A model generated the notes under the pieces. That model worked only from the letters and a program-made list of their open reading frames with translations. It did not search any database and had not been told where the DNA came from. Of a stretch of DNA of 64,000 nt, positions 7,852 to 64,000 are shown one piece after another. Source of the stretch: Patescibacteria group bacterium (GTDB lineage Bacteria > Patescibacteriota > WWE3 > UBA101185 > UBA10185); assembly GCA_049322215.1 (NCBI GenBank), contig JBMORU010000001.1, positions 580,023-644,022 of the forward strand, read 5' to 3'. Positions within the stretch are counted from its first letter, which is position 1; each line of letters starts with the position of its first letter. The position numbers were made by a program, and so were the translations under genes.

Positions 7852-8929
7852 CATGCAGGAATTTAAATACTATCCTAAGGTTTCTTTTATAATGGGTACT
7901 TTGAATGCAGAACGTACTTTACGTGAATGTTTAGCATCTATTCGAATGCAAAACTATCCTCAAGAAAAAATTGAAATTGTTTTGGCCGACGGCGGTTCTA
8001 CTGATAAAACTTTAAAAATTGCAAAAAAGTATGGTGCTGATGTGGTGGAAAACAAATTAGTTACATCTGAATCAGGGAAGGCGGTGGCTTTAAAGGCTTC
8101 TACCGGAGAATTAATATGCTCTATAGATTCAGATAATATTCTTCCAACAAAAAGTTGGTTAAAAAAAATGGTTAAGCCCTTGGTTAAAAACCCTTCTTAT
8201 ATTGGCTCAGAAGCTATTCGTTTTACTTACAGAAAAGAAGACGGTTATATTGATAGATACTGTGCGCTTATAGGCATGAATGACCCTTTATGTATGTGGT
8301 TAGGAACCTATGATCGTATAAATACACTAACCGGGAAATGGACGGGGCTTCCTGTTAAATACAAAAAGAAAAATGGTTACATTGAAGTTTTGTTAGAACA
8401 CGGAAACATTCCAACAATTGGTGCTAACGGTTTTATGCTTAGAAAATCTATTTTTGAAGAAAACTCTGCTTTAGTGGGGGAATATTTGTTTGATGTAGAT
8501 TTACTAGAAATGATAACTGCAAATAAAGGACCCCAAAAATTTGCAAAAGTTTACGTTGGAGTTATACATTTGTATTGTGGATCAAGTTTAAAAAGGTTTT
8601 CTAAAAAACAACTGCGTCGTGTCAAAGATTATTTATACCGAAGAAATGTATCTGATGTGTTTATTACCAATACTTACAATGATAGAAGCTATACTTATGG
8701 GCAAGGTTCTGCATTAGCTTTATTTAAAAATATATTAAGGTTTGCTATTGAAACAGTTTTAGTATTCCCGCTTTTAATACAATCAATACGGGGCTACCTA
8801 AAAGTAAAAGATAAAGCCTGGTTTGCCCACATTATTTTGTGTTGGTTAACTCTACTAATGTATATGTATGGTACTGTCCAAAGTTTTTTTTCACGTAAAG
8901 AATTATCTAGGGAAAACTGGAAACAATGA
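7835..8929 (+). CDS. Family 2 glycosyltransferase (GT-A fold) with a C-terminal membrane segment
   Basis: N-terminal VSFIMGTLNAERTLRECLASI...IEIVLADGGSTDKT is typical of GT2 and includes a DxD-like SIDSD. Hydrophobic C-terminus. Confidence 0.75.
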   Translation: MLKRFNMQEFKYYPKVSFIMGTLNAERTLRECLASIRMQNYPQEKIEIVLADGGSTDKTLKIAKKYGADVVENKLVTSESGKAVALKASTGELICSIDSDNILPTKSWLKKMVKPLVKNPSYIGSEAIRFTYRKEDGYIDRYCALIGMNDPLCMWLGTYDRINTLTGKWTGLPVKYKKKNGYIEVLLEHGNIPTIGANGFMLRKSIFEENSALVGEYLFDVDLLEMITANKGPQKFAKVYVGVIHLYCGSSLKRFSKKQLRRVKDYLYRRNVSDVFITNTYNDRSYTYGQGSALALFKNILRFAIETVLVFPLLIQSIRGYLKVKDKAWFAHIILCWLTLLMYMYGTVQSFFSRKELSRENWKQ

Positions 8930-11127
8930 AACTACTTAAAAAAAATTTAAGCACACTTTTAGTTATTGCCCCAGCGATTGTTTTACTTTTACTTGTTTTT
9001 GCTACTAACTTAAAAGAAATTCCTGTAGAAACAAAAGAGCCACTATTAAATTTCACAGGAAACGAATCTTTACTATTATCTCCACTAGAGCCTGGAGATG
9101 GTTTTGCTGCACAAGCACAAGGTGCTCCAATTGACATTACTTTTAGCATTCCAACTACAATAAATGGGTTTTCATTTTTGTTTGGAGGCAATTTACATGA
9201 GGTAAGTTCATATTTAGCGGAAGATTTTGATATATATGTTTTATCTGCAAACGGTGAGTGGCACTCAGAAGCAGAAATTAGATCTAATAAAAAGGCAAGC
9301 TTTGTATATATGTTTGAAGATTCTCGTGAAGTGCTAGGAATTCGCTTAGTAATTCACAAGGCTCCTTTTAGTAATGCTGTTTTAATAAAGGATCTAAAAT
9401 TTTACAACTTGAAAACAGTAACAGTATTAAACGGCTTAACTCACTTTTTACAATCACAGAGTAAGTCAGTATTTTCATACTACTTTTATTCAATTATTTT
9501 TTACTTTTGGCTCATTATTCCTGGTTTTGTAGTTATGAAGTATATGAATACGCGACTGAGTTTAAAGTTTTCGGGAGAAAAATTATATGTCTTTGCTCCT
9601 GTTATATCCTTTTGTTTGTTGGCTGCGGTAACAACATTTTATTTGTTATTTAGACAAAAAATAATTTTTGATTTGTACTGGCTATATTTCTTGTTTAGCA
9701 TTTATTTGCTGATTAAAAATACATATTGGAAAGAAATAAATATTTCTAAGCAAATAATATTTGTTACCGCCTTTGCTTTGTTAATTACTACTTCCTTGCA
9801 AATAAAAAGAGATTATCTGTTTAATTTAAACTACATTGAGCATCAAATGGATGCTTTACAATATATGCCACACTATTTTTATGGAGGCTATTTTGGATAC
9901 CACGCCGATAATACTATGCCTTGGGGAATTGCGCGTGCCTACATTAATGATGCCCCTTTATATTCCGAAGAAGCCTCCCGTTATAGAATTGGCTTTGGTC
10001 CTGAAAGCGTTATAGACAGGACACCAATGCTACCTCTTATGGTAGCCCCTATATTGCGTACTTTCGGAGAAAGCCATTTCATTTACCAAAGATTTCTTAC
10101 AGTTATTATGCTTTTTTATTATCCAGCGGCGTTTATTTTGCTTAAAAGATACTTTAATGAAAAAACTGCGACTATTGTTTCTATTTTAATGCTTCTTAGT
10201 GTGCAGCTGACTTTTCAAGTAAATAATGTTGAAATTTATTATAAGTTTATAGCAATATTTCCTACGTTTTTGGCGCTAGTTTCCCTAAAGTCTAGTAAAA
10301 CTAGTTTATTTACTAAACATGCATTAGCAGGTTTATTGCTTGGGGTTTCGTACTTAATACACCCTATTACTTTATTTTTTGTGATTACTTTAGGTGTTTT
10401 ACACTTAAAAGGAATAAAACTTAACACGAATTATATTAAAAGGTCATTGTATCTTTTTGGGCCTGTGTTGGTTTTGTTTGCTGTTTGGATGTTGTTTACA
10501 CTTTACATTAGATCAATTGCTCCAGAGCACGCCTCTTTAAGGCAGGCAATTTATGTGGAAGAAGTGTCACGTATATCAACAGAGCCTCTTTTAAATAAAC
10601 TATATAATGTTGTAAATATTTTTGTTCCTGATTTTCAACGACGCGCTAATTCATATAAGTTGTTTTCTTCTGATTATTTCAGAATAGAATTTTCGCGATT
10701 ATCTTTAATTGCAGCAGTCACACCTTTCTTTTTGTTAACTTTGGTTTTAAAAGGGTTTAGGAAAAAGTTTTTTCGCAAATACTTTGCACACTTTGTTTTT
10801 GGGTTATTTCCATTTGTTGTTTATTTAGCATTTTTTCACAAATACTCACTTGGGGGTTACATATTGCTTTACCCTTTCACGCTTCCATTTTTGTTTGGCT
10901 TAATAGTTACTTTGCTACAGCGCATTGAACTTGAAAAAAGAATTTACATTTACCTTTCGTATCCGGTTTTTATGTTGGTTCCTTTTTATTACATTTCCGA
11001 AGTTTTCACAAAGTTACTGCACAAAAATTTTACTGTTTATACAATGTCCTTTATATTGTTTTCACTCTATATTTATTTGTCGTTCTTGCTAATTGCAAAG
11101 GTTACAAGGTATAAAGGAAACCAATGA
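8926..11127 (+). CDS. Large polytopic membrane protein (putative GT-C-like glycosyltransferase or polymerase) with an N-terminal extracytoplasmic beta-rich domain
   Basis: 733 aa. It has a TM anchor, a ~170-aa soluble domain, then more than 10 predicted TM helices. The function is assigned by context only. Confidence 0.45.
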   Translation: MKLLKKNLSTLLVIAPAIVLLLLVFATNLKEIPVETKEPLLNFTGNESLLLSPLEPGDGFAAQAQGAPIDITFSIPTTINGFSFLFGGNLHEVSSYLAEDFDIYVLSANGEWHSEAEIRSNKKASFVYMFEDSREVLGIRLVIHKAPFSNAVLIKDLKFYNLKTVTVLNGLTHFLQSQSKSVFSYYFYSIIFYFWLIIPGFVVMKYMNTRLSLKFSGEKLYVFAPVISFCLLAAVTTFYLLFRQKIIFDLYWLYFLFSIYLLIKNTYWKEINISKQIIFVTAFALLITTSLQIKRDYLFNLNYIEHQMDALQYMPHYFYGGYFGYHADNTMPWGIARAYINDAPLYSEEASRYRIGFGPESVIDRTPMLPLMVAPILRTFGESHFIYQRFLTVIMLFYYPAAFILLKRYFNEKTATIVSILMLLSVQLTFQVNNVEIYYKFIAIFPTFLALVSLKSSKTSLFTKHALAGLLLGVSYLIHPITLFFVITLGVLHLKGIKLNTNYIKRSLYLFGPVLVLFAVWMLFTLYIRSIAPEHASLRQAIYVEEVSRISTEPLLNKLYNVVNIFVPDFQRRANSYKLFSSDYFRIEFSRLSLIAAVTPFFLLTLVLKGFRKKFFRKYFAHFVFGLFPFVVYLAFFHKYSLGGYILLYPFTLPFLFGLIVTLLQRIELEKRIYIYLSYPVFMLVPFYYISEVFTKLLHKNFTVYTMSFILFSLYIYLSFLLIAKVTRYKGNQ

Positions 11128-16123: not shown

Positions 16124-17319
16124 AGGTTTTGTTTTTATTCAATCAGCTTTTGGTAGAAGAGTTTTCAAGTGGAGGCGATGTAAAAGGATTTACAATTTTT
16201 GAAGAAGCTATGCATGATGAAAGCTTGCATCCTGGCGTTATGTGTTCGGCAGTTGCTAAAAAATCTTTTTCTGTAGCAGATAAATATTTGGTTGGTAATT
16301 CTTTTGTAGAAAGTATATTTGACCGCAAGTTCGTTCCATTTATTTTTGTATTGTATTTTTTTAGGGCTATCGAAGCCATTAGTTTATTATCAAAAGTATC
16401 TACAAATGTTATTTACACTACTGGAGACTTTTTTTGTAATGTTTTACCTGCTTATAAATATAAAAAAAACAATCCGGCAGTAATTTGGTGTGCTTGTGTT
16501 TACCACATTAACGAGAGTCCGTTTAATAGAAAATCAAACTTTTTTTTACGTAGTTTAATTTCTTATTTAATGCAAAAGTATAGTTTTAGCCTTATAAAAA
16601 AGAAGGCGGACTTAATTTTTGTTTTAAACGAAGGCGTAAAAAAATCTTTAATAAACTTAGGGTTTAAAAATAAAATAGTTGTTTCGGGGTTAGGCTTAAA
16701 CACTTCTGAAATAAAAAATAAAGTAAATAGTTACAGCAAAAGCGATTTTAAGTACAAAAACTCCAATTTAGTGTTTTTTAATAGAGTAAACCCAACTAAA
16801 GGGGTTTTTGATTTACCAAAAATATTAAGTGAGGTTAAGCTCTCACATTCTGATGCGTATTTGCATATTATAGGTAGTGTTGATCCTTCTATAAAAAACA
16901 AGTTGAATGTAGAATTTGCTGCACTAAGCTGTGAAAACAGCTATAAGTTTCACGGATTTCTACCTAAAAACGATGTTTACAAAATAATTAGTGAATCTAA
17001 AGTTTTTTTGCAAACTTCATACGAAGAAGGGTGGAGTTTAGTATTATTTGAGGGTATTATGTGTAGAACAATTCCGGTTGTTTATGATTTACCAGTTTAC
17101 CGTGAAGTGTTTAAAAATACCTTAAATATTGCCCCTTTAGGAGATATAGCAGCATTTGTAAATTTAATTAATGAGGTACTTGATTTAAATAAATCAGAGT
17201 ACGAAAAAACCCTACATGATTGCTATACTATAGCGGCAAGCTATGATAATAAGCAGGTTTATGAAAAGGAAAAATTGGCAATTGAATCACTGAAAAATGA
17301 AAGAATTATTAAAGCGTAG
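16120..17319 (+). CDS. GT4-family glycosyltransferase
   Basis: C-terminal EGWSLVLFEGIMCRTIPVV motif. 4-nt overlap with the upstream gene. Confidence 0.6.
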   Translation: MKVLFLFNQLLVEEFSSGGDVKGFTIFEEAMHDESLHPGVMCSAVAKKSFSVADKYLVGNSFVESIFDRKFVPFIFVLYFFRAIEAISLLSKVSTNVIYTTGDFFCNVLPAYKYKKNNPAVIWCACVYHINESPFNRKSNFFLRSLISYLMQKYSFSLIKKKADLIFVLNEGVKKSLINLGFKNKIVVSGLGLNTSEIKNKVNSYSKSDFKYKNSNLVFFNRVNPTKGVFDLPKILSEVKLSHSDAYLHIIGSVDPSIKNKLNVEFAALSCENSYKFHGFLPKNDVYKIISESKVFLQTSYEEGWSLVLFEGIMCRTIPVVYDLPVYREVFKNTLNIAPLGDIAAFVNLINEVLDLNKSEYEKTLHDCYTIAASYDNKQVYEKEKLAIESLKNERIIKA

Positions 17320-20300
17320 AAGCATCAAAAACATTTTAGCTATTTTCTTTTATTTACTAGTCGGTTTACTTCTTTTTAAGCCTATATTTTCATCTAAGGG
17401 TATAATCACCGGTGGGGATTGGTCTTTTCCCTATACATTTTTGCAATTGAATAATTTTTTAATTGATCGTATTTTTTCCTGGGGGAAAATTGAGTTAGTA
17501 GGCGGTTTTAGAATATTTTTAGTTGATTTGCCTTTTGCACTACTTCTTAAAGGATTAGGTTTTGCAGGTGTTTCTCCTATTTTATATCCAAAGCTTGCAT
17601 TGTTAGGTGCTTATGTATTAGCGGGCTTTGGGATGTTTTATTACTTAAAGTACTTGAAGGTTAAATTTCCTGTAGCATTGTTTGGCGGTTTACTATACGT
17701 ATTCTCTCCATTTTTCTTTAATTATACTGTCATGGGGTGGATTTATGTTTTGATCTCTATGGGCATATTTCCTTTGTTTTTAACTTTTTTTGATAGAGCA
17801 GTTAAAGAGCGTAAGTTTCATTTTGCGGCACTTTGCGGAATTTTGTTTTCTCTAGCATTTATGCAGTCTACCTCAATAATTTGGTATTCGTTTGGACTGT
17901 TAGCAATTGGAATAACTTATGTAACAAACAAAAAACACCTTCAAAACTTTATTTTAATGAGTATTGTTACTTATTCTATTCTATTTCTGACCCACTTATA
18001 TTGGGCTTATAACCTGTTTACAATTAGAGATTCCACAATTTTTGGTTCAGAAAATGTTTTATCCAGCGTAAGTTTGGGCACTTGGGCTCATTTAAGTCTT
18101 CAAAATCTTATACGCGGGTGGGGATCTTTGTTTAATGCTACCTATGAATACAGTTACTTTTCTGATTTTCCTCTAGTTTCGTATGCTTTAACTATTCTTG
18201 CACTTTTAAGCTTGTTTATTCCTAGAGAAAGAAAACACGTGCACTTGCAGTCGGTTGTACTGTTTCTTATTCCAATATTTTTGTATCTGTTAGGCCCTGA
18301 ACGTATTGCACTTCTTCCACTTGGAAATGTAATGCGCGATGTTGCACGTATGTCTGTTTTAATTTCATTTAGTTTAACCGTGCTTTCCATTTTGTTTATA
18401 AATTATTTGTATAAAACGCAAAAATATTTCCTATTAATTATTTGTATCTTTGTGTCGTTTTTAAGTGCTAATCCCTTTTGGTCGGGTAAATTTTATGCAA
18501 ACCCCAAACTACCGCAGGATATTCGTTTAAGAACTTATGTTTATCCTGAAGACTACTCAATAATTGAGTCTTTTATAGCTAGCAATAGTGAAGCAGATAA
18601 AGTTATGTATATACCTACCTATTCATCTTTTAGTGATTTCACAAATCCTAACTTTAGTGGTCCCTATAGAGAAATGGCTTATGTTTTTGCTTCAATGTCC
18701 CCTAAGCAAGGCATAATTTATACAACTGATAAAGAACGTCGCGGAATCAACGGCTACTATGGAAATTTAGTAGAGCAACTTAAATATAATTATGATGAAA
18801 GTATTAGCTATATATTAAGTTCTTTAAATGTTAAGTATTTTGTTTTCTACTACAATTCTATGGGAGCAGAAGATTGGCGTTTGTATGAAAAAGTTTCTAC
18901 AGATAATAATCGCTTTAATGATATAACGGCGAAAGTTTTAGGTAATTCTTCAAATAAAGTATCTGTTTTTGAAGTAGCTACCCCATCAGCAACTATTGAA
19001 GCTGTTAACTATGTTGTTTCTAATTCCGACCCCAAGGAGAGTATAAAAACTAAAGCCACTATTTTTTCAGATAATCCTGAATTACGAATATTTACCTCTC
19101 CATATAAAGACGTAACTACTATTGATTCATTAATTTACAAAGCCAAAGTTGCTCGGGAATTTGATTTACAAACTAAAGCGGTTAATTCAGGGTGGTTTTG
19201 GCCAACAGTGCGTCATAAACCAGGTACCCTTACTTATAAACTTATTAGATTTTTAGAAGATAAAAAAGTTACTACTGCAAAAGACAGAAAAATACAACTA
19301 GAATTACTTTTGTGGCATGCTTCCAAAAGAGCAGCTGAGGTTGCCACATTTGGCGACGCAAATAAAGAATCACTTACTACATCTTTTTATGCTAATCATA
19401 CAGAAATAAGCGAATTACTTTCTTCGTTTGATTTTGATGATAAGGATGATTGGTACTATGGTTACTTGTACAAATTGGACTATTACTTAAACGAAAGTGA
19501 TCCCTATATCGACACAGAAGTTCTTCAAAATGATTTAGAAAACAAGTTAAAGTTTGAGCGTTTTTCCATTTTAGATTCAAACCGTATAAATTGCGAAGAA
19601 CTATGCTACGGTGTTAATTTGGGCGTAGAAAACTTTGATTCACTTTATTTTGTGTTAAATAACTCGGTAGTAAAATCACCTTCTTATACTCTGATTTCGC
19701 CAAACGTATTGGAAATACAGAAAAGCAAAGAGATACTTATAAATCAAAATGATTTTTTGAACTCTACCTATGTATTTAACTCTAACGAAGCTAAAGAATT
19801 ACTCTCAGCACATTGGCAGGCTTTTGAGCAAGTGCTGTCTAGAGATATTTTTAAATATATATTCTTTTCGCTATCGAATGCTCAACTAATTTCTATAGAA
19901 AACTGGGAACCTTCAACTACTTATGACATTTCTTTTGATTATGTTCAGGGAGATCTTCCAATTAGAGTGTTTATTGTAGAGGATGTGGAGCAAATCACTT
20001 CTGATTTTGTAGAGGGTGTAAAAAACGAAAACATTATTTTAAAGCCAAAAATTAATGACATTAAAGAAATAGCCTCTCTGGCTAAAGGTACTACTTCTAT
20101 AGAACGACCATTCAAAATGTCATTTACAACGCACCCTCTTGCACAAACTGGATATATATACATTTTAAATGGTAATCCAGAAACTGCTCCGGCCGAAACC
20201 TTAGAAACGATAAAAAATTTTGAAATTTCCAAACCTTTTGCACCTGATTTATACCTAACTAATTTTGATGCAAACTCTTCAAGTGGCTTGCCGGAAATAG

Positions 20301-21355
20301 CCTTTACATATATTAATCCAACAAAATATTTAGCTTCTGTTAAAGGTGCTAGTTCAACATTTGGGCTTGTTTTAAAGCAAAGGTTTCATCCAAGCTGGGA
20401 GGTTAAATTTGCAGATTCTGGTACTATCTTAGATGAAGAAAATCACTATATAAGCGATGGTTATGGTAATGGGTGGGTAATAAATTCAGAAAGTATAGGA
20501 AGTGCAGACTTTGATTTAGTTATAGAATTTGCACCTCAAAAATACACTACTATTGGTTTCATGATTTCATTAATAGTTTTTGGAAGTTCTATATTATTTA
20601 TTGCATACAAACTACTTAAGCCTTCCCCTATACCGGACTATTCTGCATATGAAACAAGCTTTTTTAAAGAAAAGCTGAAAACTTTGGGGTATGTGTTGAA
20701 AGAAAACGGAATAAAAGGGTTATTCTTAATAGCACTGCGCACTCTAACCTATTTATATTACAAGGTTTTTAAGAAATCTACATTTGTATTTAATAATAAA
20801 CGGTACTCTTACTTTTATCACTGGTACAACGTAACCTTTAGGAATGAGCGTTGTGTAGAATTACCTATAGCCAAAGAGTATTTAGACAGGTTTCAAACTA
20901 ATTCAGTGCTAGAGGTTGGAAATGTTTTATCTCATTACTTCGATGTATCTCACGATGTAGTAGATAAGTATGAAGATAGTTCAACTACAATACGAGAAGA
21001 CATAGTTGACTTTAATACGCCTAAAAAATATGACTTGGTAATAAGCATTTCTACACTAGAGCATGTGGGGTGGGATGAAGACAAAAGAGACCCAAAAAAG
21101 TTTTTGAAAGCTCTCTCTAAAATGCGTTCGTTACTAAAACCGGGAGGAAAACTGTTAGTTACAATGCCCATGGGGTGGAGTGACTTTGTGGATAACTATG
21201 TGAAGCAAGGGGAGTTTCTTGACTATAAAGTTAACTTTATGAAAAGACACACTGCTGACAACAGCTGGAAGCAGGTTTCTCGTGAAGAGATAGTAGGTTC
21301 TAACTATAATGAGCCATTTCCAAATGCCAATGCAATCATTATTATAGAGCTATAA
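17297..21355 (+). CDS. Giant (1352 aa) polytopic membrane protein with a large extracytoplasmic region and a C-terminal cytoplasmic class I methyltransferase-like domain
   Basis: About 12 N-terminal TM helices and a ~650-aa soluble middle. A late TM (IGFMISLIVFGSSILFIAY) is followed by LEVGNV...DLVISISTLEHVGWDE...LKPGGKLLVTMP, a methyltransferase-fold signature. Confidence 0.55.
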   Translation: MKELLKRRSIKNILAIFFYLLVGLLLFKPIFSSKGIITGGDWSFPYTFLQLNNFLIDRIFSWGKIELVGGFRIFLVDLPFALLLKGLGFAGVSPILYPKLALLGAYVLAGFGMFYYLKYLKVKFPVALFGGLLYVFSPFFFNYTVMGWIYVLISMGIFPLFLTFFDRAVKERKFHFAALCGILFSLAFMQSTSIIWYSFGLLAIGITYVTNKKHLQNFILMSIVTYSILFLTHLYWAYNLFTIRDSTIFGSENVLSSVSLGTWAHLSLQNLIRGWGSLFNATYEYSYFSDFPLVSYALTILALLSLFIPRERKHVHLQSVVLFLIPIFLYLLGPERIALLPLGNVMRDVARMSVLISFSLTVLSILFINYLYKTQKYFLLIICIFVSFLSANPFWSGKFYANPKLPQDIRLRTYVYPEDYSIIESFIASNSEADKVMYIPTYSSFSDFTNPNFSGPYREMAYVFASMSPKQGIIYTTDKERRGINGYYGNLVEQLKYNYDESISYILSSLNVKYFVFYYNSMGAEDWRLYEKVSTDNNRFNDITAKVLGNSSNKVSVFEVATPSATIEAVNYVVSNSDPKESIKTKATIFSDNPELRIFTSPYKDVTTIDSLIYKAKVAREFDLQTKAVNSGWFWPTVRHKPGTLTYKLIRFLEDKKVTTAKDRKIQLELLLWHASKRAAEVATFGDANKESLTTSFYANHTEISELLSSFDFDDKDDWYYGYLYKLDYYLNESDPYIDTEVLQNDLENKLKFERFSILDSNRINCEELCYGVNLGVENFDSLYFVLNNSVVKSPSYTLISPNVLEIQKSKEILINQNDFLNSTYVFNSNEAKELLSAHWQAFEQVLSRDIFKYIFFSLSNAQLISIENWEPSTTYDISFDYVQGDLPIRVFIVEDVEQITSDFVEGVKNENIILKPKINDIKEIASLAKGTTSIERPFKMSFTTHPLAQTGYIYILNGNPETAPAETLETIKNFEISKPFAPDLYLTNFDANSSSGLPEIAFTYINPTKYLASVKGASSTFGLVLKQRFHPSWEVKFADSGTILDEENHYISDGYGNGWVINSESIGSADFDLVIEFAPQKYTTIGFMISLIVFGSSILFIAYKLLKPSPIPDYSAYETSFFKEKLKTLGYVLKENGIKGLFLIALRTLTYLYYKVFKKSTFVFNNKRYSYFYHWYNVTFRNERCVELPIAKEYLDRFQTNSVLEVGNVLSHYFDVSHDVVDKYEDSSTTIREDIVDFNTPKKYDLVISISTLEHVGWDEDKRDPKKFLKALSKMRSLLKPGGKLLVTMPMGWSDFVDNYVKQGEFLDYKVNFMKRHTADNSWKQVSREEIVGSNYNEPFPNANAIIIIEL

Positions 21356-21356
21356 T

Positions 21357-22955
21357 ATGTTTGTTTTAGGCGGTCTTGAAGATCAAATAACTTCTATAGT
21401 ATGGGGATTAATATCAAGCTCACCCTTTTCGCTTGATAATACTGCTTTACTACAGCATCTTCCTTATTATGTGCATTTTGAGCCTTTTATACATCCGTTA
21501 AGTACTAATCAGCCTATACTTTGGTTTTTTATTTCTATAATTTTATCTATATTTGGAACAGGCATATATAATTCTTTGGTTGTCTTGACTATACTTGCTA
21601 CACTTTTAACAAGTTATCGCTATTTTAAAAAATACAACTGGCCGTATGCCTATTCTCTAATATTTACATTCTCTGCTTATACCTGGAGTCATTTAGGTAG
21701 GCATATAGCTATTTCTCAATTGTGGCTCATTCCTGTTTATTTTATTTTATTTGAAAAATTAGAAAAGGAAGTTAAGTTTAAAACTATTCTAATTTCTGGA
21801 CTTTTTTTAGCTATTTGCGTTTTGATTTCTAATTATTTGGGATTCTTTCTTTTGCTGTTTAGTTTTATTCACATTGTATGTAAGGAATTTTATTACCTAT
21901 TTTTCAAAAAAGCTTACAACTTTAAACTACTAAAAAACTATTTTTTAACTTTTTTGTTTGGTGCTATTTTTAGTGTACCGTTTTTGCTACCTTTTTTACG
22001 TGCAACATACTTTTCTAGTACTACAGTTTCAAATGTAGTTCCCATTAGTAGGGGAATTGAAGATTTTGTTACTTTTAGTGTGCGTCCTTGGTATTTTGTG
22101 GCTCCACCAATAAAAAATCCGTTTATAGGCGTAGTAGGAAGCAAAGTTGTTACAGCTGCTGAAAAAACCGGTTATTTTTTGGCGGACGACTACTTTGCAG
22201 GAGAACACTCTGGTTTATTTTTTGGTTATACATTTTTAACACTTCTAGGATGTGGTTCATTTATTTTATTAAAAACGGGGAAAACTGCACTAAAAAGAAA
22301 AGTTTATTTTTATTACTTACAAGTGCTTATTGTGCTTAGTTTTATGCTCCCTCCTTTTTTTACTATTTCTGGTGTAAAAGTTTTAACTCCTGGATATTTA
22401 GTATATTTGCTATTTCCTATGTTTAGGGTTACTTCAAGAATGGCGCCAATTGTTTTGTTTTTATTACTAATAATATTTGCAGAGATAATTAGCCACCTAT
22501 ATTACAAACTAAGTAAGAAAAAATTATTAATGAGTGTAGTTTTTGTTGTTGCTGTTACCTTGGCAGAAGTTTTTGTTCCAGTTAAAGTATTTAATTACTC
22601 TAATACGCCAGAAGTGTATACCGCACTATCAGAACTACCTCCAGAAGAATCTTATTTTGCTGTATATCCCTATAGTGAATCTGATGAGGCATTTTTTTGG
22701 TTATGGCAGCACAAACGCTTGCTAATAAATCCAAGGTTTTATTCAACAGCTACCTTTGACTCGGAGACATTTACTAAAAACCTTGCTACTGACCAAGGAC
22801 TACAAAGTTTAAGTGCGTATTCTAATGCCTATCTAGTTGTAATTAAAGAAAAGACTGAAGTGTCTACCTTAGATTTTTTTGAAAGTTCAAATAAACTAAA
22901 AAAAATCAAAGAGACCGCAACATATTCTATATATAAAACTAATGTTTCAAACTAA
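21357..22955 (+). CDS. Polytopic membrane protein (putative GT-C-like glycan polymerase or transferase)
   Basis: 532 aa with more than 10 predicted TM helices. It starts 1 nt after the upstream stop. Function assigned by context. Confidence 0.45.
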   Translation: MFVLGGLEDQITSIVWGLISSSPFSLDNTALLQHLPYYVHFEPFIHPLSTNQPILWFFISIILSIFGTGIYNSLVVLTILATLLTSYRYFKKYNWPYAYSLIFTFSAYTWSHLGRHIAISQLWLIPVYFILFEKLEKEVKFKTILISGLFLAICVLISNYLGFFLLLFSFIHIVCKEFYYLFFKKAYNFKLLKNYFLTFLFGAIFSVPFLLPFLRATYFSSTTVSNVVPISRGIEDFVTFSVRPWYFVAPPIKNPFIGVVGSKVVTAAEKTGYFLADDYFAGEHSGLFFGYTFLTLLGCGSFILLKTGKTALKRKVYFYYLQVLIVLSFMLPPFFTISGVKVLTPGYLVYLLFPMFRVTSRMAPIVLFLLLIIFAEIISHLYYKLSKKKLLMSVVFVVAVTLAEVFVPVKVFNYSNTPEVYTALSELPPEESYFAVYPYSESDEAFFWLWQHKRLLINPRFYSTATFDSETFTKNLATDQGLQSLSAYSNAYLVVIKEKTEVSTLDFFESSNKLKKIKETATYSIYKTNVSN

Positions 22956-42005: not shown

Positions 42006-42011
42006 ATATTA

Positions 42012-42040
42012 TATATACCCGAAACTAACCCGAATGTAAA
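42012..42040 (-). promoter_or_regulatory. Promoter with TTCGG direct repeats in the spacer (candidate SOS operator) for the yolD-like/polymerase operon
   Basis: Read on the minus strand: TTTACA - TTCGGGTTAGTTTCGGG (17 nt) - TATATA. The same architecture is present at lexA. Confidence 0.5.
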
Positions 42041-42109
42041 TATTTATTCTTGCTTTTTTTAAGTTTTTAACCTATATAATAGTAAAACCTCAATCAAAGG
42101 AGACAAATA

Positions 42110-42361
42110 ATGAGCAATAAAGTTATTAGGTATTTTTGGGCTAAGCTTGGAAGTGCCGATACGGTGCAGCACTTGTTGCAGAAAAATCGTTTGACCAGTG
42201 ACATTGAAATACTACCACCAACGCCTGCTTTTGATCCAAAGCATCAGCCGGTACGCTTTATGCACGATACCACAATGCCGTTTAATTTTGATGTAGAAGC
42301 AATGGCGCCACATACAGTAGACAGTGCCAAAATACACGATACTTCTTATAGAAGCTATTAG
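42110..42361 (+). CDS. Small protein, family A paralogue 1 (unknown function)
   Basis: 83 aa with SD aaaggagacaaataATG. It is 35-40% identical to the next ORF (MSN..Y.WA..G.A..V..LL.K....EI.PP..FDP..QPV.F.....PFN.D....T.D.A.IH). Confidence 0.5.
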   Translation: MSNKVIRYFWAKLGSADTVQHLLQKNRLTSDIEILPPTPAFDPKHQPVRFMHDTTMPFNFDVEAMAPHTVDSAKIHDTSYRSY

Positions 42362-42375
42362 CAAGGAGGTTACTC

Positions 42376-42633
42376 GTGTCAAATATTGATTTTGGTTATT
42401 TATGGGCGAGTATTGGGAATGCTAACAAAGTACGTGATTTATTAAATAAGCACGTTCAAGCGTCTGGTGTTGAAATAATGCCCCCAGAACTTGGCTTTGA
42501 CCCACCATATCAACCTGTGGAGTTTTGTTACAACAGAAGCATACCGTTTAACCTCGATAGGTCAGTTTTTGGGCCGTATACCATAGATAACGCACGCATT
42601 CACTCGGGTACAAGAAAAGTCAAAAGATCCTGA
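42376..42633 (+). CDS. Small protein, family A paralogue 2 (unknown function)
   Basis: 85 aa with a GTG start and SD caaggaggttactcGTG. Tandem paralogue of 42110..42361. Confidence 0.5.
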   Translation: MSNIDFGYLWASIGNANKVRDLLNKHVQASGVEIMPPELGFDPPYQPVEFCYNRSIPFNLDRSVFGPYTIDNARIHSGTRKVKRS

Positions 42634-42638
42634 CTTGA

Positions 42639-42690
42639 GTTGCTGCTAATTGGTTTTAAAATTGATTAGCAGCAATTTAATTATTGACAC
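42639..42690 (+). terminator. Stem-loop (probable terminator) after the family A pair
   Basis: TTGCTGCTAAT / 15-nt loop / ATTAGCAGCAA forms an 11-bp stem followed by TTTAATTATT. Confidence 0.45.
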
Positions 42691-42699
42691 CGACTTTAT

Positions 42700-42866
42700 A
42701 TCATTATAGATTCAAACTAGTTTAAACTACGACGGCCTTTGGAAAGCCAGAGTTTTAATTTAATATTAAGCGGACTGTTTACAGTCAAGCGGGGTGGAAC
42801 CGCGCAAGTTTACACTTTCGTCCCCGAATTTATATAATAGATTTGGTGGTAGATAAGTGTTTTTTT
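42700..42866 (+). promoter_or_regulatory. Putative T-box riboswitch-like leader of glyQS
   Basis: GGGTGGAACCGCG at 42792..42804 matches the T-box core GGGUGGNACCGCG at every defined position. A GGC (Gly) codon lies in a small hairpin GGCCUUUGGAAAGCC upstream. No canonical terminator U-tract was found, only a CGGGG/CCCCG helix. Confidence 0.4.
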
Positions 42867-58315: not shown

Positions 58316-58939
58316 TTAGTATTTTCTTATTACGCCTGTTACTTTTCCTTGTATTTGCAAATCTCCTGGATTTACATAAATAGGATCCATATTTTGATTA
58401 GCGGGTTGTAAGCGTACTCTATCTTTTTCTTTATAAAATGTTTTTAGTGTTGCAAAATTATTATCAATTAGAGCTACAATAATATCTCCATTGTTTGCTG
58501 TTTCTTGCTTTTGTATTACTACGTAGTCTCCATCATGAATGCCTTCTTCAATCATGGAGTCACCACGAACTTGTAGTACATAACATCGCTTAACTCGTGA
58601 AACTAAATCAGGAGAAACCACAATAGTTTGAGTGCTGTCTTCGATAGCATCAATAGGTTCACCTGCTGCAATGAAACCTACTAATGGAAGCTCTATTCCT
58701 TGTAGGGTTGCATTTACTTTTTCATCTAAAATTTCTATTCCCCTAACAGCTCCTTCAAATCTCTTTATAACACCTTTTTTAACTAGTGCTTGCAAATGTT
58801 CGTGCACTGTAGCTAATGATGATAAGCTCATTGCGTCTGCAATTTCTTGCAATGTAGGAGAGGATCCATTTTTTTGAATATATTGGGAAATAAAGTCTAG
58901 AATTTCTTTTTGACGTTTATATAAAGTAACTGCACACAT
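58316..58939 (-). CDS. lexA: LexA repressor (SOS regulator, S24 self-cleaving peptidase)
   Basis: N-terminal winged HTH (RQKEILDFISQYIQKNGSSPTLQEIA). C-terminal LQVRGDSMIEEGI (Ser nucleophile) and the Lys in GKVTGVIRKY. Confidence 0.85.
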   Translation of the reverse strand: MCAVTLYKRQKEILDFISQYIQKNGSSPTLQEIADAMSLSSLATVHEHLQALVKKGVIKRFEGAVRGIEILDEKVNATLQGIELPLVGFIAAGEPIDAIEDSTQTIVVSPDLVSRVKRCYVLQVRGDSMIEEGIHDGDYVVIQKQETANNGDIIVALIDNNFATLKTFYKEKDRVRLQPANQNMDPIYVNPGDLQIQGKVTGVIRKY

Positions 58940-58983
58940 AGAAGACCTTTCTAAATAATTTTGGGTTTCTTTTGGTAAAATAA

Positions 58984-59012
58984 ATATACCGAAGAGTTAC
59001 CGAAGATGTCAA
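58984..59012 (-). promoter_or_regulatory. lexA promoter with two TTCGGTA direct repeats filling the -35/-10 spacer (candidate SOS operator)
   Basis: Read on the minus strand: TTGACA - TCTTCGGTAACTCTTCG (17 nt) - GTATAT. Confidence 0.55.
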
Positions 59013-59082
59013 CTGCCTAATTAATTTGCTACAATTTTAAAGTTATTGAATACCCGAATATACGCAAAGTAAGGAGATAAAT

Positions 59083-59355
59083 ATGCCAGAGAAGAAATTT
59101 GTGCGAAAACCAGAAGGTAAAAATGAGGTAAAAGGAAAAGTTATAAAGGCGAGTGGAAGACATTTTACGGTTGAAGTTCCAGGGGAAAAAAAGCCTTTGA
59201 TTTGGGCCAATGCTTTTTATGACAGTCATAAAGGTTGTTGGTGGGGTATGGTGAATGATTCAACTGTTTGTTGGTGGGAAGGAAACTATAATGTTGACTT
59301 AAAACCAGCTGTGCACGTGCCTAACATACCTGGTCGTGGCATTTTAGGAGGTTAA
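59083..59355 (+). CDS. Small protein, family B paralogue 1 (WWG-motif protein, unknown function)
   Basis: 90 aa with SD gtaaggagataaatATG. It shares SG..F.V...K....A.YD...G.WWG..N..T.C.W with the next ORF. Confidence 0.5.
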   Translation: MPEKKFVRKPEGKNEVKGKVIKASGRHFTVEVPGEKKPLIWANAFYDSHKGCWWGMVNDSTVCWWEGNYNVDLKPAVHVPNIPGRGILGG

Positions 59356-59365
59356 AGGAGAAACA

Positions 59366-59632
59366 ATGTCGGAAGATGGTTTTATTGCAGGAGTACCGGA
59401 GTCTGTTGTAAAGATTCGCGCAAGTGTTGTATCCAGGTCTGGTGAGAGAGCGTTTAAGGTTCGTTTAAAATCAGAAGGAAAAGCTGAGGTAAATGTTGAA
59501 TATGCATGCTATGACGTGAAACGTGGTCGTTGGTGGGGAAAGATAAACGCAAAAACTATTTGTTATTGGCGAGCGCAACCACCAAATGGGATTAAGTTGG
59601 GCAAACGCATACTTTCTTGGCTTCCAGTTTAA
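59366..59632 (+). CDS. Small protein, family B paralogue 2 (WWG-motif protein)
   Basis: 88 aa with SD aggaggttaaaggagaaacaATG. Tandem paralogue of 59083..59355. Confidence 0.5.
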   Translation: MSEDGFIAGVPESVVKIRASVVSRSGERAFKVRLKSEGKAEVNVEYACYDVKRGRWWGKINAKTICYWRAQPPNGIKLGKRILSWLPV

Positions 59633-59642
59633 TAGAAATTTA

Positions 59643-59690
59643 AGGGGATAAATAAAGCAATTTTGTTTTATTAATCCCCATTTTTATTTG
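59643..59690 (+). terminator. Rho-independent terminator after the family B pair
   Basis: GGGGATAAATAAA...TTTATTAATCCCC stem of about 13 bp with one mismatch, followed by ATTTTTATTT. Confidence 0.65.
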
Positions 59691-59740
59691 TGCTAATACA
59701 ACTCCAAACAAAACCCAAAACTTATGTTAAAATTTAATTT

Positions 59741-61819
59741 ATGTTTGACCTTCACGCATCTTATAAACCTACTGGTGATCAACCTAAAGCCATAGAGCAG
59801 CTTACTGAATGGGTTAACAATAACAGCCGGAATCAGGTTTTACTTGGTGTTACGGGTAGTGGAAAAACCTTTACAATAGCTAACGTAATTAAAAATACTA
59901 ATAGACCAACACTTATTATTTCTCATAACAAAACATTAGCTGCTCAACTTTATCAAGAATTCAGAGATTTTTTTCCAAACAATGCAGTTGAATACTTTGT
60001 GAGTTATTACGATTATTATCAACCAGAAAGTTATTTGCCTCAAACAGATACATATATAGAAAAAGATGCTGATATAAATGAGGAAATAGAAAAACTGCGT
60101 TTAGCAGCTACTACTTCTTTAATGAGTAGAAAAGATGTAATAGTGGTTTCTTCAGTTTCATGTATTTACAATTTGGGTTCACCGGCTGAGTACTCGAATT
60201 TTGCTGTAAGACTAAGTAAAGGCATGAAGATTCGGTTGCAAGACTTGTTAACACGTCTTACTCAAGTTCACTATGAAAGAAACGAATTTGATTTTGTAAG
60301 AGGTAGTTATCGCGTTAGAGGTGAAATTGTAGATGTATTTCCTGCATACCAGGATTTTGGTGTGCGCTTAGAGGTGTTTAATGATACTCTTGTCGACATT
60401 TCTTATTTTGATCCTTTAACAGGAGAGGTTATTAACTTTAGTAACTTGCCTAAAACAAGATTAGGCGGGCGTATCAGAGAAATTACACAAAATGAGGGTG
60501 AATACATAAAACACTTAATACAAAATAGTCTTGTAGAAATTTATCCTGCAAAACACTACATAACTGCAGAAGAACGTCGTCCGGCTGCAATTAAGCAAAT
60601 AGAAGCTGATTTAGAAGAACACCTAAAGTTTTTAAGAAACACTGGTAAAACTATAGAAGCCTACCGTTTAGAGCAACGAACTCGCTATGATTTAGAAATG
60701 GTGCAAGAAATAGGTTACTGCAAAGGAATTGAAAACTATTCACGTTATTTTGATGGGCGAAAGCCTGGAGGTACACCATATACATTAATGGACTTTTTCC
60801 CTAAAAATTATTTAGTGGTAATTGATGAGTCTCATATTACTGTTCCGCAAATTAGGGGAATGTTTAACGGTGACCAAGCGCGTAAAAGAGTTTTAATTGA
60901 GCATGGATTTAGATTACCTTCTGCATTGGATAATCGTCCCTTAAATTTTGAAGAATTTATGCGTAATTTGAATCAGGGTTTGTACACGAGTGCTACTCCT
61001 GGAGATTGGGAATTAAGTATGGCTGAGGGTAAAATTGCTGAACAGTTAATTAGGCCAACAGGAATTGTAGATCCTGAAGTCATTGTTTTACCCACAAAAA
61101 ATCAAATTACAGATTTAACAGAAAAAATACGAGCTCGTGTGAAAAATAAAGAACGTGTTTTAGTTACTACTTTAACAAAAAGAATGGCTGAAGAATTGTC
61201 TACATACTTGCTTGAACAGGGCATAAAAGTTACTTACTTGCATTCAGATATTATCACGCTCGAACGAACTGCAATTTTAGATGATTTACGTAGAGGTAAT
61301 TATGATGTACTTGTTGGAATTAATTTATTAAGAGAAGGATTAGATTTACCTGAAGTTTCTTTAGTAGCTATTTTAGATGCAGATAAAGAAGGCTTTTTGA
61401 GATCAGATACCTCATTAATTCAAACAATGGGTAGAGCGGCACGCCACATTCAAGGTGAAGTTGTAATGTATGCTGATAATATTACTAAAAGTATGGAACG
61501 TGCCATTGAAGAAGTAAGTCGTCGTAGAGAAATTCAACGAGAATATAATATTGCACATAATATTGTTCCTCAAAAAATTACAAAGCCTATAAGAGAAAAA
61601 TTAATTGATGAGGAAATAGAAGAAAGTATCAGTGGAAAAGACAAAAGGAAATCAAAGTTTAAAGATGTAGATTACATGTCACTTTCTCCCAATGACTTTA
61701 AAAAAGAGCTAAAACGCCTTACTGAATTAATGAAGTATGAAGCAGAAATGCTTAATTTTGAAAAAGCAGCCGTTATTAGAGATCAAATACGTAAAATCAA
61801 AAAGATCCGAGAGGAGTAA
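59741..61819 (+). CDS. uvrB: Excinuclease ABC subunit B
   Basis: Walker [16 protein letters not shown], helicase motifs, the beta-hairpin region and a C-terminal UVR domain ([13 protein letters not shown]). Confidence 0.9.
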
Positions 61820-61828
61820 CTTATAGTA

Positions 61829-61857
61829 TTGACAGAATGGTGTGTATAGTGTAGTAT
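61829..61857 (+). promoter_or_regulatory. Sigma-70-type promoter driving the downstream non-coding RNA
   Basis: TTGACA - 17 nt - TAGTAT, immediately after the uvrB stop. Confidence 0.6.
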
Positions 61858-61863
61858 TTCACC

Positions 61864-62125
61864 ACAACGTTGGTGCTGTGTTCTTTATTTAATAAAGAAT
61901 TTAGATGATTGTTCATGCATGTCAGTTGAGCTTTCTGTTCAATGGTTTCCGGAAAAACTTAAGCAGCGTATGAGTCTGATTCGATTGGTTTTACCAGCAG
62001 CGCGCAGTGAGGGAAGGAACAGACCAACATATCTGAAGTGCTTTAAAGCTACTTTTTAAATATTCAATTCCGGTGAATGGCTAAAAAGTTTTCCTAGCAA
62101 AGTTCGAATCTTTGCCAACGTCTTA
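61864..62125 (+). ncRNA. Structured non-coding RNA of about 260 nt with a split tRNA-like domain; candidate tmRNA (ssrA)
   Basis: No ORF on either strand. The 5' ACGUUGG (61867..61873) pairs with the 3' CCAACGU (62115..62121). A perfect T-arm CAAAG-UUCGAAU-CUUUG (62098..62114) and a discriminator C lie directly upstream of the 3' strand. There is no D or anticodon arm, so it is tRNA-like only at the ends, as in tmRNA. It is bounded by a promoter and a strong terminator. Confidence 0.4.
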
Positions 62126-62127
62126 AC

Positions 62128-62182
62128 GGAGTTTCAATTAACACGTAAGTATTTACTGTGTTTTTGAAACTCCTTTTTTTTT
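62128..62182 (+). terminator. Rho-independent terminator of the non-coding RNA
   Basis: GGAGTTTCAA...TTGAAACTCC 10-bp stem followed by T9. Confidence 0.8.
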
Positions 62183-62551
62183 GCTTAACATACTTTAGCA
62201 TCTTGACGATTTCCCTTTAAGGAAAATATAATCAAGTTAGTTAGGAGCCAGGGCTTTGCGCCGAATAGCTCGATACAAATTCGCTTTATCACGTTTTCGG
62301 TTACTATAACAAATGCTTATAAATAGTTCGGATTAAGTTCCGTTTTGTTGCATTGTATTTAAAAGTTCATATTGATGTTAAAAAGTGTAGTTAGTAGTTT
62401 AAAAAAACTAATACTGCTCGTGCTATTTGAGATTGTTGATTTTTTGGTTTGGTTGGGCAATAAAATCCTCTTTGCAGTAGGGGGTTTAATTAGGCATGTT
62501 CGGGATTTTCCCATTTATGTAAAACGCATTCCATTAAGTAAGTTAAGTAAT

Positions 62552-64000
62552 TTGCCAAAAACAAAGAACTTCAAATTGAAGTTTAAAGCTGTCCCTCTCA
62601 AAATAAAATTAAAAAATTCTGCAAAGAAAAAAAGATCAATTAAAAAAAGAAAAGATAAACGTGAAATAAAATTGGTTCCTAGGTTTTTTAAAAGCTTTTC
62701 TGTGTTTACTTCAGGTATGTTTTTTACTTTGGTTTTTGTTTGGTTTCCTTTTGAAGCTTACACTTGGTATTCGTCCTTACCTCAGCCTAGTCTTTTGTTA
62801 GAAACTGAACACAATAAGTCCACAAAAATTTTGGACAGAAATGGAAAACTTTTATATGAAATATATGTTGACAAAAAATACGATCCAGTTCCTTTAAATG
62901 AAATACCTGACTATGTTGTTAATGCCACTTTGGCAATAGAAGATGATGCTTTTTACTTCCATAAAGGAGTTAGACCTTTAAGTATGCTAAGAGCAGCAAA
63001 GGCCATAGTGCTAGATGATCACTTACAAGGTGGTTCTACAATTACACAGCAACTAGTTAAAAATGTGTTGTTATCTCCTGAGCGTACTTTTCAAAGAAAG
63101 CTGAAAGAAGGAGTATTAGCATTAAGAGTTGAACACACATTTACAAAAAATGAAATTCTTGAAATGTATCTAAACAATATTCCCTATGGTGGAACTGCCT
63201 GGGGAATTCAGGCTGCTTCTAAAAAATTTTTCAACAAAAAAGTTCAAGATTTATCTTTGGCTGAAGCAGCGTATTTGGTTATACTTCCTTCTGCTCCAAC
63301 TACCTATTCTCCATATGATGGTGATAAAGATCTTGCCAAAAGTAAACAACACTTTGTTTTAGATAAAATGCACGAGTTAGGTTACATAAGCAAGGCCGAA
63401 GCTGACTTAGCAAAAAATGAAGAGTTAGTTTTTGCTACACCGGTAGAGTATATAAGGGCGCCTCATTTTGTCAGTTATATAAGAAGTGAGTTAGTAAAAT
63501 TGTATGGAGAACGCATGGTAGATTTTGGTGGCTTAACTGTAACTACTTCTTTAAACATTGATTTGCAAGATAAGGTTCAGGAAATTGTAGCTGAAGAAGT
63601 TGCTAAAAGTAATGACCTAAATATAACTAATGGTGCGGCAGTGGTTTTAGATAGCGAAAATGGAGAAATTCTTGCACACGTAGGCTCAATAAATTACTTT
63701 GATAAAGAACACGATGGTGCATTTGATGTTGTAACTGCCTATAGATCTCCCGGGTCTACAATAAAAGCAGTTACCTATGCACTTGCTTTAGATAGTGGTT
63801 TAACGCCTGTCACTCAAATAAATGATTCTCCATTTACAGTTCAGGCATACGGGCAAACTTACTCCCCGGTAAATTATGATGGAAAATTTCATGGGCGGGT
63901 TTCGTTAAGAACTGCCCTTGCAAATTCTTATAATATTCCTGCAGTTAAGTTAGTAAAAGCTTTGGGTCCGGATAAAATGGTTGCACTTGGAAAAAGCATG
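62552..64000 (+). CDS. Class A penicillin-binding protein (PBP1A-type, GT51 transglycosylase plus transpeptidase); 3' end beyond the window and the start uncertain
   Basis: GT51 motifs EDDAFYFHKGV, GGSTITQQLVKN and RKLKE. Transpeptidase motifs STIK and SYN. The frame is open from 62399 with no in-frame ATG before the TM segment, so a TTG start at 62552 is assumed (GTG 62420 and TTG 62576 are alternatives). It is not in the ORF track because there is no stop in the window. Confidence 0.7.
   Translation, partial: MPKTKNFKLKFKAVPLKIKLKNSAKKKRSIKKRKDKREIKLVPRFFKSFSVFTSGMFFTLVFVWFPFEAYTWYSSLPQPSLLLETEHNKSTKILDRNGKLLYEIYVDKKYDPVPLNEIPDYVVNATLAIEDDAFYFHKGVRPLSMLRAAKAIVLDDHLQGGSTITQQLVKNVLLSPERTFQRKLKEGVLALRVEHTFTKNEILEMYLNNIPYGGTAWGIQAASKKFFNKKVQDLSLAEAAYLVILPSAPTTYSPYDGDKDLAKSKQHFVLDKMHELGYISKAEADLAKNEELVFATPVEYIRAPHFVSYIRSELVKLYGERMVDFGGLTVTTSLNIDLQDKVQEIVAEEVAKSNDLNITNGAAVVLDSENGEILAHVGSINYFDKEHDGAFDVVTAYRSPGSTIKAVTYALALDSGLTPVTQINDSPFTVQAYGQTYSPVNYDGKFHGRVSLRTALANSYNIPAVKLVKALGPDKMVALGKSM

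Follow-up and report, generated by a model that had tools for sequence, protein, structure and literature searches.

The window, a 64,000-nt stretch of contig JBMORU010000001.1 (positions 580,023 to 644,022 of the forward strand; GenBank assembly GCA_049322215.1, Patescibacteria group bacterium), contains a self-contained non-coding unit at positions 61829-62182, between uvrB and a class A penicillin-binding protein (PBP) gene. A promoter is followed there by a predicted RNA whose two ends can pair as a tRNA-like acceptor stem adjoining a T-arm, and by an intrinsic terminator. The most fitting description is that of a candidate gene, specific to this lineage, for a small RNA with tRNA-like termini; it belongs to no known family and is found in a single genome. 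An earlier reading of the letters alone (the sequence-only reading) had proposed a candidate transfer-messenger RNA (tmRNA) in this gap. Its promoter-to-terminator layout holds at the sequence level; the tmRNA label is not supported, and the architecture alone is tmRNA-like. We tentatively favour an orphan small RNA that has a tRNA-like minihelix as its cap and would be matured by enzymes of tRNA processing; its transcription, processing and function are what we infer.

Transcription unit and its tRNA-like ends

The defining elements of the unit are as follows.

61829..61857, + strand: sigma-70-type promoter with TTGACA at 61829-34, a 17-nt spacer and TAGTAT at 61852-57; 10/12 match in the promoter scan
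61867..61873, + strand: 5' acceptor-like strand ACGUUGG, read from the sequence, with the pairs A1-U72, C2-G71 and G3-C70
62098..62114, + strand: T-arm CAAAG / UUCGAAU / CUUUG, read from the sequence, with G53-C61 and a canonical T-loop (T54-T55-C56-R57-A58)
62115..62122, + strand: 3' acceptor-like strand CCAACGU with discriminator C62122, read from the sequence, followed by UUA and no encoded CCA
62128..62182, + strand: intrinsic terminator, a 19-bp interrupted hairpin and then T9 at 62174-82

The two ends form a 7-bp helix, ACGTTGG at 61867-73 being the perfect complement of CCAACGT at 62115-21, and the T-arm adjoins the 3' acceptor strand with zero spacer, the two reading CAAAGUUCGAAUCUUUGCCAACGU. 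Acceptor and T-arm together comprise 12/12 Watson-Crick pairs and a consensus T-loop, with 24 flawless paired positions. In the thermodynamic ensemble, the acceptor helix (P1) has a pairing probability of 0.96, with 62116-21, and the T-arm one of 0.76. The site at 62098-62114 is the sole T-arm-like site on both strands of the window, and the two-part acceptor/T-arm pattern gave a single match in the window and none in 100 shuffles. The end pairing, the perfect T-arm immediately 5' of the 3' strand and the discriminator at its end (C62122) were thus all found where the sequence-only reading had placed them. Its tRNA-like domain assembled from the two ends, with the acceptor stacked on the T-arm in a tmRNA-type architecture, likewise holds at that level.

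The promoter announced right after uvrB was recovered, with its TTGACA element ten bases from the end of uvrB at 61819; 10 nt separate TAGTAT from the 5' acceptor strand at 61867. Promoter spacing gives a predicted transcription start near A61864, about 3 nt upstream of that strand. The 10-bp/T9 terminator, described beforehand as lying about 320 nt downstream, is present as well: its arms GGAGTTTCAA (62128-37) and TTGAAACTCC (62164-73) pair, the hairpin folded alone has an energy of -20.9 kcal/mol (z -6.27; 0/200 shuffles equally stable), and its start lies six bases downstream of the discriminator. The order of promoter, acceptor helix, T-arm and terminator, together with their spacing, is that of a bacterial tRNA-type transcription unit. 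The unit has a G+C content of 38.7% overall and 47% in its central body, compared with 33.6% in other intergenic DNA; structured RNAs of AT-rich genomes usually stand out by such a higher G+C content.

The frequency of such arrangements by chance was estimated on dinucleotide-shuffled 64-kb windows. The T-arm-like hairpin alone occurred 0.245 times per shuffled window and was present in 22% of them, and a T-arm with a directly following 7-nt strand and its perfect complement within 400 nt upstream was obtained in 6 of 400 shuffles (1.5%). Promoters matching at least 10/12 positions numbered 21 on both strands of the window (128 kb), or about 1 per 6.1 kb per strand, and one ending 10 nt ahead of the 5' strand is an event of about 0.1%. 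For all elements jointly, the chance probability is in the order of 1e-5 or lower per window. With a 10/12 promoter ending 10 nt short of the 5' strand and a terminator of z -6.3 starting 6 nt past the discriminator, an accidental arrangement of promoter, minihelix and terminator is very unlikely.

The 224 nt between the 5' acceptor strand and the T-arm hold the following predicted structures.

61876..61904, + strand: 5' AU-rich hairpin GUUCUUUAU / AUAAAGAAU, extended by CUG/UAG; predicted, base-pair probability 0.94
61925..61943, + strand: hairpin GUUGAGC-UUUCU-GUUCAAU, base-pair probability 0.87, between sequence blocks GUCAG and UCCGGAA
61945..62035, + strand: G+C-richer central body (47%) with predicted helices 61968-78 / 62020-32, probabilities 0.64-0.67
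62052..62088, + strand: long arm CUUUUUA/UAAAAAG plus UAUUCA/UGAAUG with a 7-nt loop AUUCCGG at 62067-73, probabilities 0.79-0.91

Three internal hairpins are well populated in the ensemble (0.8-0.94), and the long arm folded alone reaches -8.9 kcal/mol (z -2.7). The gap had been called free of open reading frames (ORFs). The public assembly has no gene call in the uvrB-PBP interval and the unit has no coding potential, but a mechanical 46-aa ATG ORF does exist at 61919-62059. It is the only ORF in the unit, lacks a Shine-Dalgarno sequence and has no homologue among 5.8 billion proteins; a small protein gene was rejected, the ORF being without homologue and not called as a gene.

The 5' acceptor strand (window 61860-61875) also lies within the palindrome CAACGTTG and a local hairpin CACCA-CAACGU-UGGUG (-5 kcal/mol). 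This hairpin could form only in uvrB read-through RNA, as a competitor of the end-to-end helix.

The unit is flanked by the following features.

59741..61819, + strand: uvrB (692 aa), the upstream neighbour, stop codon 61817-19; from the ORF list, with Pfam UvrB domains and 100% identity to the UvrB of an NCBI 'Patescibacteria group bacterium'
62203..62232, + strand: second promoter, TTGACG, an 18-nt spacer and TATAAT; 11/12 in the promoter scan, one of 3 sites of at least 11/12 in the window

The class A PBP gene starts near 62375 and is a gene call with Transgly and Transpeptidase domains; the second promoter presumably serves it. The uvrB-PBP spacer in the window measures 555 nt, of which about 360 nt are extra relative to related genomes.

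Distribution among related genomes and in mobile DNA

The genome is that of a WWE3-like Patescibacterium; the closest other UvrB proteins are 72-74% identical and mostly labelled WWE3. Six loci from relatives (L001, L082, L083 and L084-L086) with four distinct UvrB proteins were examined. A UvrB-anchored search of genome contigs gave one close relative (L001), and the others were obtained from three UvrB look-ups in public assemblies. At 6/6 loci uvrB runs straight into the same PBP gene. Since the spacers of these loci are 68-227 nt long and carry no such element, the promoter-RNA-terminator module of about 360 nt is, on this comparison, a lineage-specific, single-copy insertion. No second copy was found in the window or in the fetched flanking loci. 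The species was also present, at 99.87% identity, in a second sample (L229), but without coverage of the locus, and looking up LexA gave no further contig.

In viral contigs, neither an exact search with the 3' 20-mer nor a loose 3' pattern gave a homologue, the matches of the latter including phage tRNA-like genes. The two-part acceptor/T-loop pattern had 0 matches in JGI metagenomes, and among the matches listed for the loose 3' pattern in metagenomes there were noise and one phage tRNA-like gene. No homologue was obtained with blastn against phage and plasmid collections. A search of the literature on tmRNA or tRNA-like RNAs in WWE3 and the Candidate Phyla Radiation (CPR) found nothing relevant.

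Two IMG/VR phage contigs carry tRNA-like genes with the acceptor strand of the unit. The first (L088, 77 kb; the same sequence as L184) has a 149-nt tRNA-like gene at 2303-2451 with the acceptor ACGUUGG/CCAACGU, a D-arm, an anticodon arm with the loop AUUUCAA, a T-arm, an encoded GCCA and an insertion of about 76 nt between the anticodon arm and the T-arm. This gene was not called by ARAGORN, and another uncalled tRNA-like sequence seems to come after it. The second (L104, 102 kb) contains a tRNA cluster, in which a 91-nt class-II-like tRNA at 2990-3080 has the anticodon CCA, a long variable arm and the acceptor ACGUUGG, and a CUA-anticodon tRNA at 7394-7465 was called 'Pyl' (amber suppressor). 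The cluster suggests a phage with stop-codon recoding.

A repeat or mobile element of the miniature inverted-repeat type was rejected, as the window and the fetched loci contain no second copy and terminal inverted repeats are missing; the 6-nt direct repeat CAACGT arises from the palindrome ACGT at the core. An integration scar or island was rejected as well, as no integrase, att duplication or tRNA lies nearby and the flanking order lexA-uvrB-PBP-uvrA-uvrC matches that of relatives.

Several further observations were made at the locus and elsewhere in the window. The genes lexA, uvrB, the class A PBP gene, uvrA and uvrC lie within about 22 kb (window 58316-64000 plus the downstream 8 kb, L081). 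The lexA-uvrB-PBP order, which unusually links a murein synthase to excision-repair and SOS genes, is kept in WWE3-like relatives. Upstream of the PBP gene, the spacers of relatives (L001 ~8190-8225, L082 ~6125-6160, L083 ~6170-6205) share a conserved motif of about 35 nt, approximately GAGTAaCTaAAATATTCtATTTATTCTCTCTTAAT, which may be a promoter or operator of that gene and is not recognisable in the window spacer 62183-62374. In the largest apparent gap of the window (42006-42842), two small paralogous ORFs in tandem, 83 and 85 aa long (42110-42361 and 42376-42633, + strand), both start with MSN.. and share ..LG.A..V..LL.K and MPP...FDP..QPV.F. Very large ORFs of 1352 aa (17297-21355, + strand), 733 aa (8926-11127) and 532 aa (21357-22955) without a Pfam match lie inside a cluster (~2300-39000) of glycosyltransferase, methyltransferase, sulfotransferase and radical-SAM genes that presumably make glycans of the cell envelope.

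Proposed maturation and competing explanations

In the tentatively favoured explanation, a primary transcript of about 320 nt (about 61864-62182) would fold so that its ends pair as the 7-bp acceptor-type stem stacked on the 5-bp T-arm, giving a 12-bp tRNA 'top half' minihelix with C73 and a CCA-less UUA trailer. This minihelix would be a cap that mimics a tRNA and serves both processing and stability. RNase P would take off the leader of about 3 nt, RNase Z (or an exonuclease) would cleave after C73, ahead of the terminator hairpin, and the CCA-adding enzyme would finish the 3' end, leaving a defined RNA of about 256-259 nt. The multi-hairpin, G+C-richer body, without D-arm or anticodon arm, would carry whatever activity the RNA has. 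An orphan small RNA is favoured because the perfect minihelix sits between a strong promoter and a terminator, and because acceptor/T-arm minihelices suffice as substrates for RNase P, RNase Z and CCA-adding enzymes. The RNA should not be a substrate of alanyl-tRNA synthetase, since its third acceptor pair is G3-C70. If real and processed as proposed, it would be a bacterial RNA outside tmRNA that is self-closed by an acceptor/T-arm minihelix, from the poorly studied CPR, and tRNA-processing enzymes would prove recruitable to set the ends of an unrelated small RNA.

Several results weigh against this explanation. The unit is absent from the uvrB-PBP spacers at all six loci from relatives, and the nearest UvrB is only 74% identical. 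No homologue that could supply covariation for any base pair was found in viral contigs, metagenomes, phages or plasmids. The folding energy of the whole unit is ordinary (z = -0.84), and a chance rate of 1.5% per window for the minihelix does count once many windows are screened. In addition, the first promoter may be an ancestral PBP promoter that was co-opted by the insertion and is not dedicated to the RNA, since one relative (L084) has a promoter-like TTGACT directly past the uvrB stop.

An unlikely but credible alternative is a non-functional relic of a tRNA or tRNA-like gene, for example of horizontal or phage origin, with its interior replaced or scrambled by an insertion or deletion, nothing but the outer acceptor strands and the T-arm remaining, and its transcription incidental. 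This would agree with an insertion of about 360 nt that is confined to this lineage, single-copy and without homologues, and with an overall fold that is not unusually stable. The phage gene of L088 (2303-2451) shows that ACGUUGG/CCAACGU tRNA-like genes with large insertions exist in mobile DNA, but its likeness to the unit is imposed by the search pattern and does not reach the interior. In a relic, moreover, the 24 paired positions and the T-loop would have stayed perfect while the D-arm and anticodon arm left no trace. A flawless acceptor and T-arm with nothing else tRNA-like left does not look like the pattern of neutral tRNA-gene decay. A strong promoter and a terminator would also have been kept in a streamlined genome of 1.1 Mb, and no integrase, att repeat or island lies near the unit, where the flanking order is as in relatives.

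Rather improbable is a coincidence in an ordinary spacer, made up of the uvrB 3' untranslated region and terminator and the promoter DNA of the PBP gene, with the T-arm-like hairpin (centred on a TTCGAA palindrome) and the 7-nt complement as chance matches recognised in hindsight. The shuffled-window frequencies of 22% and 1.5% given above are on its side, as is the richness of the region in short palindromes (CAACGTTG, TTTCCGGAAA and GCTTTAAAGC); promoter-like hexamers of at least 9/12 are not locally enriched (12 observed against 9.7 expected), and uvrB requires a terminator somewhere in the gap. Yet spacers of 68-227 nt suffice in relatives, compared with 555 nt here, about 360 of them extra. 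The 5' strand stands 10 nt past a 10/12 promoter, of a class occurring about once per 6 kb per strand, and the 3' strand ends 6 nt upstream of the terminator. The joint probability of about 1e-5 per window or less argues in the same direction.

A cis-acting leader or attenuator of the class A PBP gene, transcribed from 61829 with the terminator conditionally read through, is improbable. A structured region and terminator upstream of a gene is the classical layout, and the promoter right after the uvrB stop matches the position of the putative PBP promoter in L084. However, an 11/12 promoter separates the terminator from the PBP gene, whose start codon is 192 nt away from that terminator, no alternative antiterminator pairing with the 5' arm of the terminator was seen, no riboswitch or T-box model matched, and relatives are without such a leader.

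We give very little weight to a more ambitious proposal, a new class of tRNA-mimic RNA in Patescibacteria. Such an RNA would combine a tmRNA-like architecture with a non-alanine identity (A1-U72, G3-C70, C73), would be matured and CCA-tailed like a tRNA, and would perhaps be aminoacylated by another synthetase or serve a tRNA-dependent enzyme as substrate or decoy. If true, it would functionally parallel or replace a tRNA-linked pathway and not be a relic.

Comparison with tmRNA, tRNA and other RNA families

A highly divergent tmRNA or tmRNA-like ribosome-rescue RNA is the least probable of the alternatives and would be surprising. It was suggested by the end-to-end acceptor and T-arm without D-arm or anticodon arm, which is the tmRNA architecture, and is compatible with a length of about 256 nt, within the range of reduced tmRNAs, and with a 15-codon frame opening GCA-GCG after a UAA. 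ARAGORN, however, detected zero tmRNA or tRNA genes in the window and still none in the region with thresholds lowered to 70% and 50% (-ps70 and -ps50), so that this proposed check was negative at default and 50% thresholds alike. The covariance-model check proposed with it (Infernal with the Rfam tmRNA, SRP and RNase P models) gave nothing either. No Rfam 15 model matched anywhere in the 64-kb window at gathering thresholds. At E<=10, the 801-nt or 271-nt region gave no match to tmRNA (alpha, beta, cyanobacterial and mitochondrial forms included), tRNA, signal recognition particle (SRP) RNA or RNase P RNA; 6S RNA and intron models were also negative there, and only spurious matches to small nucleolar RNA, microRNA and small RNA models appeared.

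The identity elements disagree in the same way. Alanyl-tRNA synthetase charges tmRNAs by way of G3-U70 and A73, present in all tmRNAs known to us, whereas pair 3:70 of the unit is G61869-C62119, as the sequence-only reading had itself cautioned, and position 73 is C. The helix can be neither extended nor shifted, so no register gives G-U. No GCN-initiated tag with a hydrophobic or Ala-Ala C-terminus was found by three-frame translation, which bears out the earlier remark that a convincing tag ORF with an AA/LAA-type end was missing. The tag candidates AAYESDSIGFTSSAQ (in frame 0), AFCSMVSGKT and ALKLLFKYSIPVNG, each read up to its stop, end in none of AA, LA or VA, and the tag would end SSAQ. 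In the predicted ensemble, three hairpins separate P1 from any closing helix, and P2-type pairing is not seen beside the T-arm, by a method that cannot predict pseudoknots. The gene is also absent at the corresponding site in related genomes and has no conserved homologue, whereas ssrA is normally conserved among genomes. With no covariance-model match and, as far as testable, no conservation of the end pairing in relatives, the tmRNA identity did not survive, and the tmRNA label was rejected on the tag analysis, on G3-C70/C73 and on the ARAGORN and Rfam results.

About 82 kb of the 1.11-Mb genome (the window, L081 and L228) was scanned for tRNA and tmRNA genes and none was found, Rfam being applied to the 64-kb window only. 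There was no Pfam match to SmpB among 30 ORFs of at least 100 aa taken from the window, and no systematic SmpB check was made. The main practical value of the analysis is this negative result: an ssrA annotation would be wrong for this locus, and a real tmRNA of the genome, if there is one, has to be looked for elsewhere.

A tRNA interrupted by an intron was considered as well. Allowing introns of 0-300 nt, ARAGORN found nothing at default thresholds in the unit and only poor, implausible stems and models at 70% thresholds. When every internal segment was removed in turn (1,515 artificial splice variants), one variant scored as tRNA-Gly(UCC) at default thresholds. It consists of the first 9 nt and the last 80 nt and uses the hairpin 62061-62079 with its loop AUUCCGG as the anticodon loop. 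A cloverleaf is not supported, because 156 of 200 control sequences with shuffled interiors (78%) also gave at least one match, and a spliced tRNA-Gly(UCC) was rejected. The statement that the unit lacks a D-arm and an anticodon arm stands on ARAGORN, the splice-variant control and the lack of an Rfam tRNA match.

A faint resemblance to SRP RNA helix 8 had also been noted. Its three blocks, GUCAG, UCCGGAA and AAGCAGC, are indeed present in the right order, but they are split by insertions of 22 and 6 nt, and the GGAA 'tetraloop' has UCC on one side and AAA on the other, two strands unable to pair, so the loop cannot be closed. Given the insertions, the unclosable loop and the lack of a covariance-model match even at E<=10, SRP RNA was rejected. 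RNase P RNA, 6S RNA, a group I intron, a riboswitch and a T-box were rejected for want of an Rfam 15 model match. Neither the window nor, at E<=10, the region matched an Rfam Y-RNA or Yrl model, and no rsr gene is located nearby.

Among known systems, tmRNA (SsrA; RF00023, clan CL00001) shares with the unit a 7-bp terminal acceptor stem adjoining a canonical T-arm without D-arm or anticodon arm, a large structured body between the two halves, an own promoter and terminator, and a length of a few hundred nt. The unit differs from it in G3-C70, which gives no alanine identity, and in C73 instead of A73. It also has no recognisable D-loop analogue, no predicted P2 helix, no hydrophobic-ended tag frame and no covariance-model or ARAGORN match, and it is not conserved in related genomes. 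With canonical tRNA, and with phage tRNA-like genes that have large insertions (such as that of L088), the unit shares the 7-bp acceptor, U8, the T-arm with GUUCGAAUC, the discriminator and the promoter-gene-terminator layout. Its A1-U72 first pair is also present in the phage tRNAs with the same acceptor, and this first pair occurs in bacterial tRNA-Trp. Unlike a tRNA, it has no D-arm, anticodon arm or cloverleaf, even with an intron at any position, and 224 nt separate its acceptor strand from the T-arm, compared with about 41 nt in tRNA. The YrlA/Y RNAs, mascRNA-type handles and viral 3' tRNA-like structures likewise place a tRNA-like module on an unrelated RNA body, and these modules are recognised by tRNA-processing enzymes. 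In contrast to the unit, the termini of YrlA lie in the Ro-binding stem and not in an acceptor stem, and mascRNA and the viral structures carry their modules only at the 3' end, with more of the cloverleaf.

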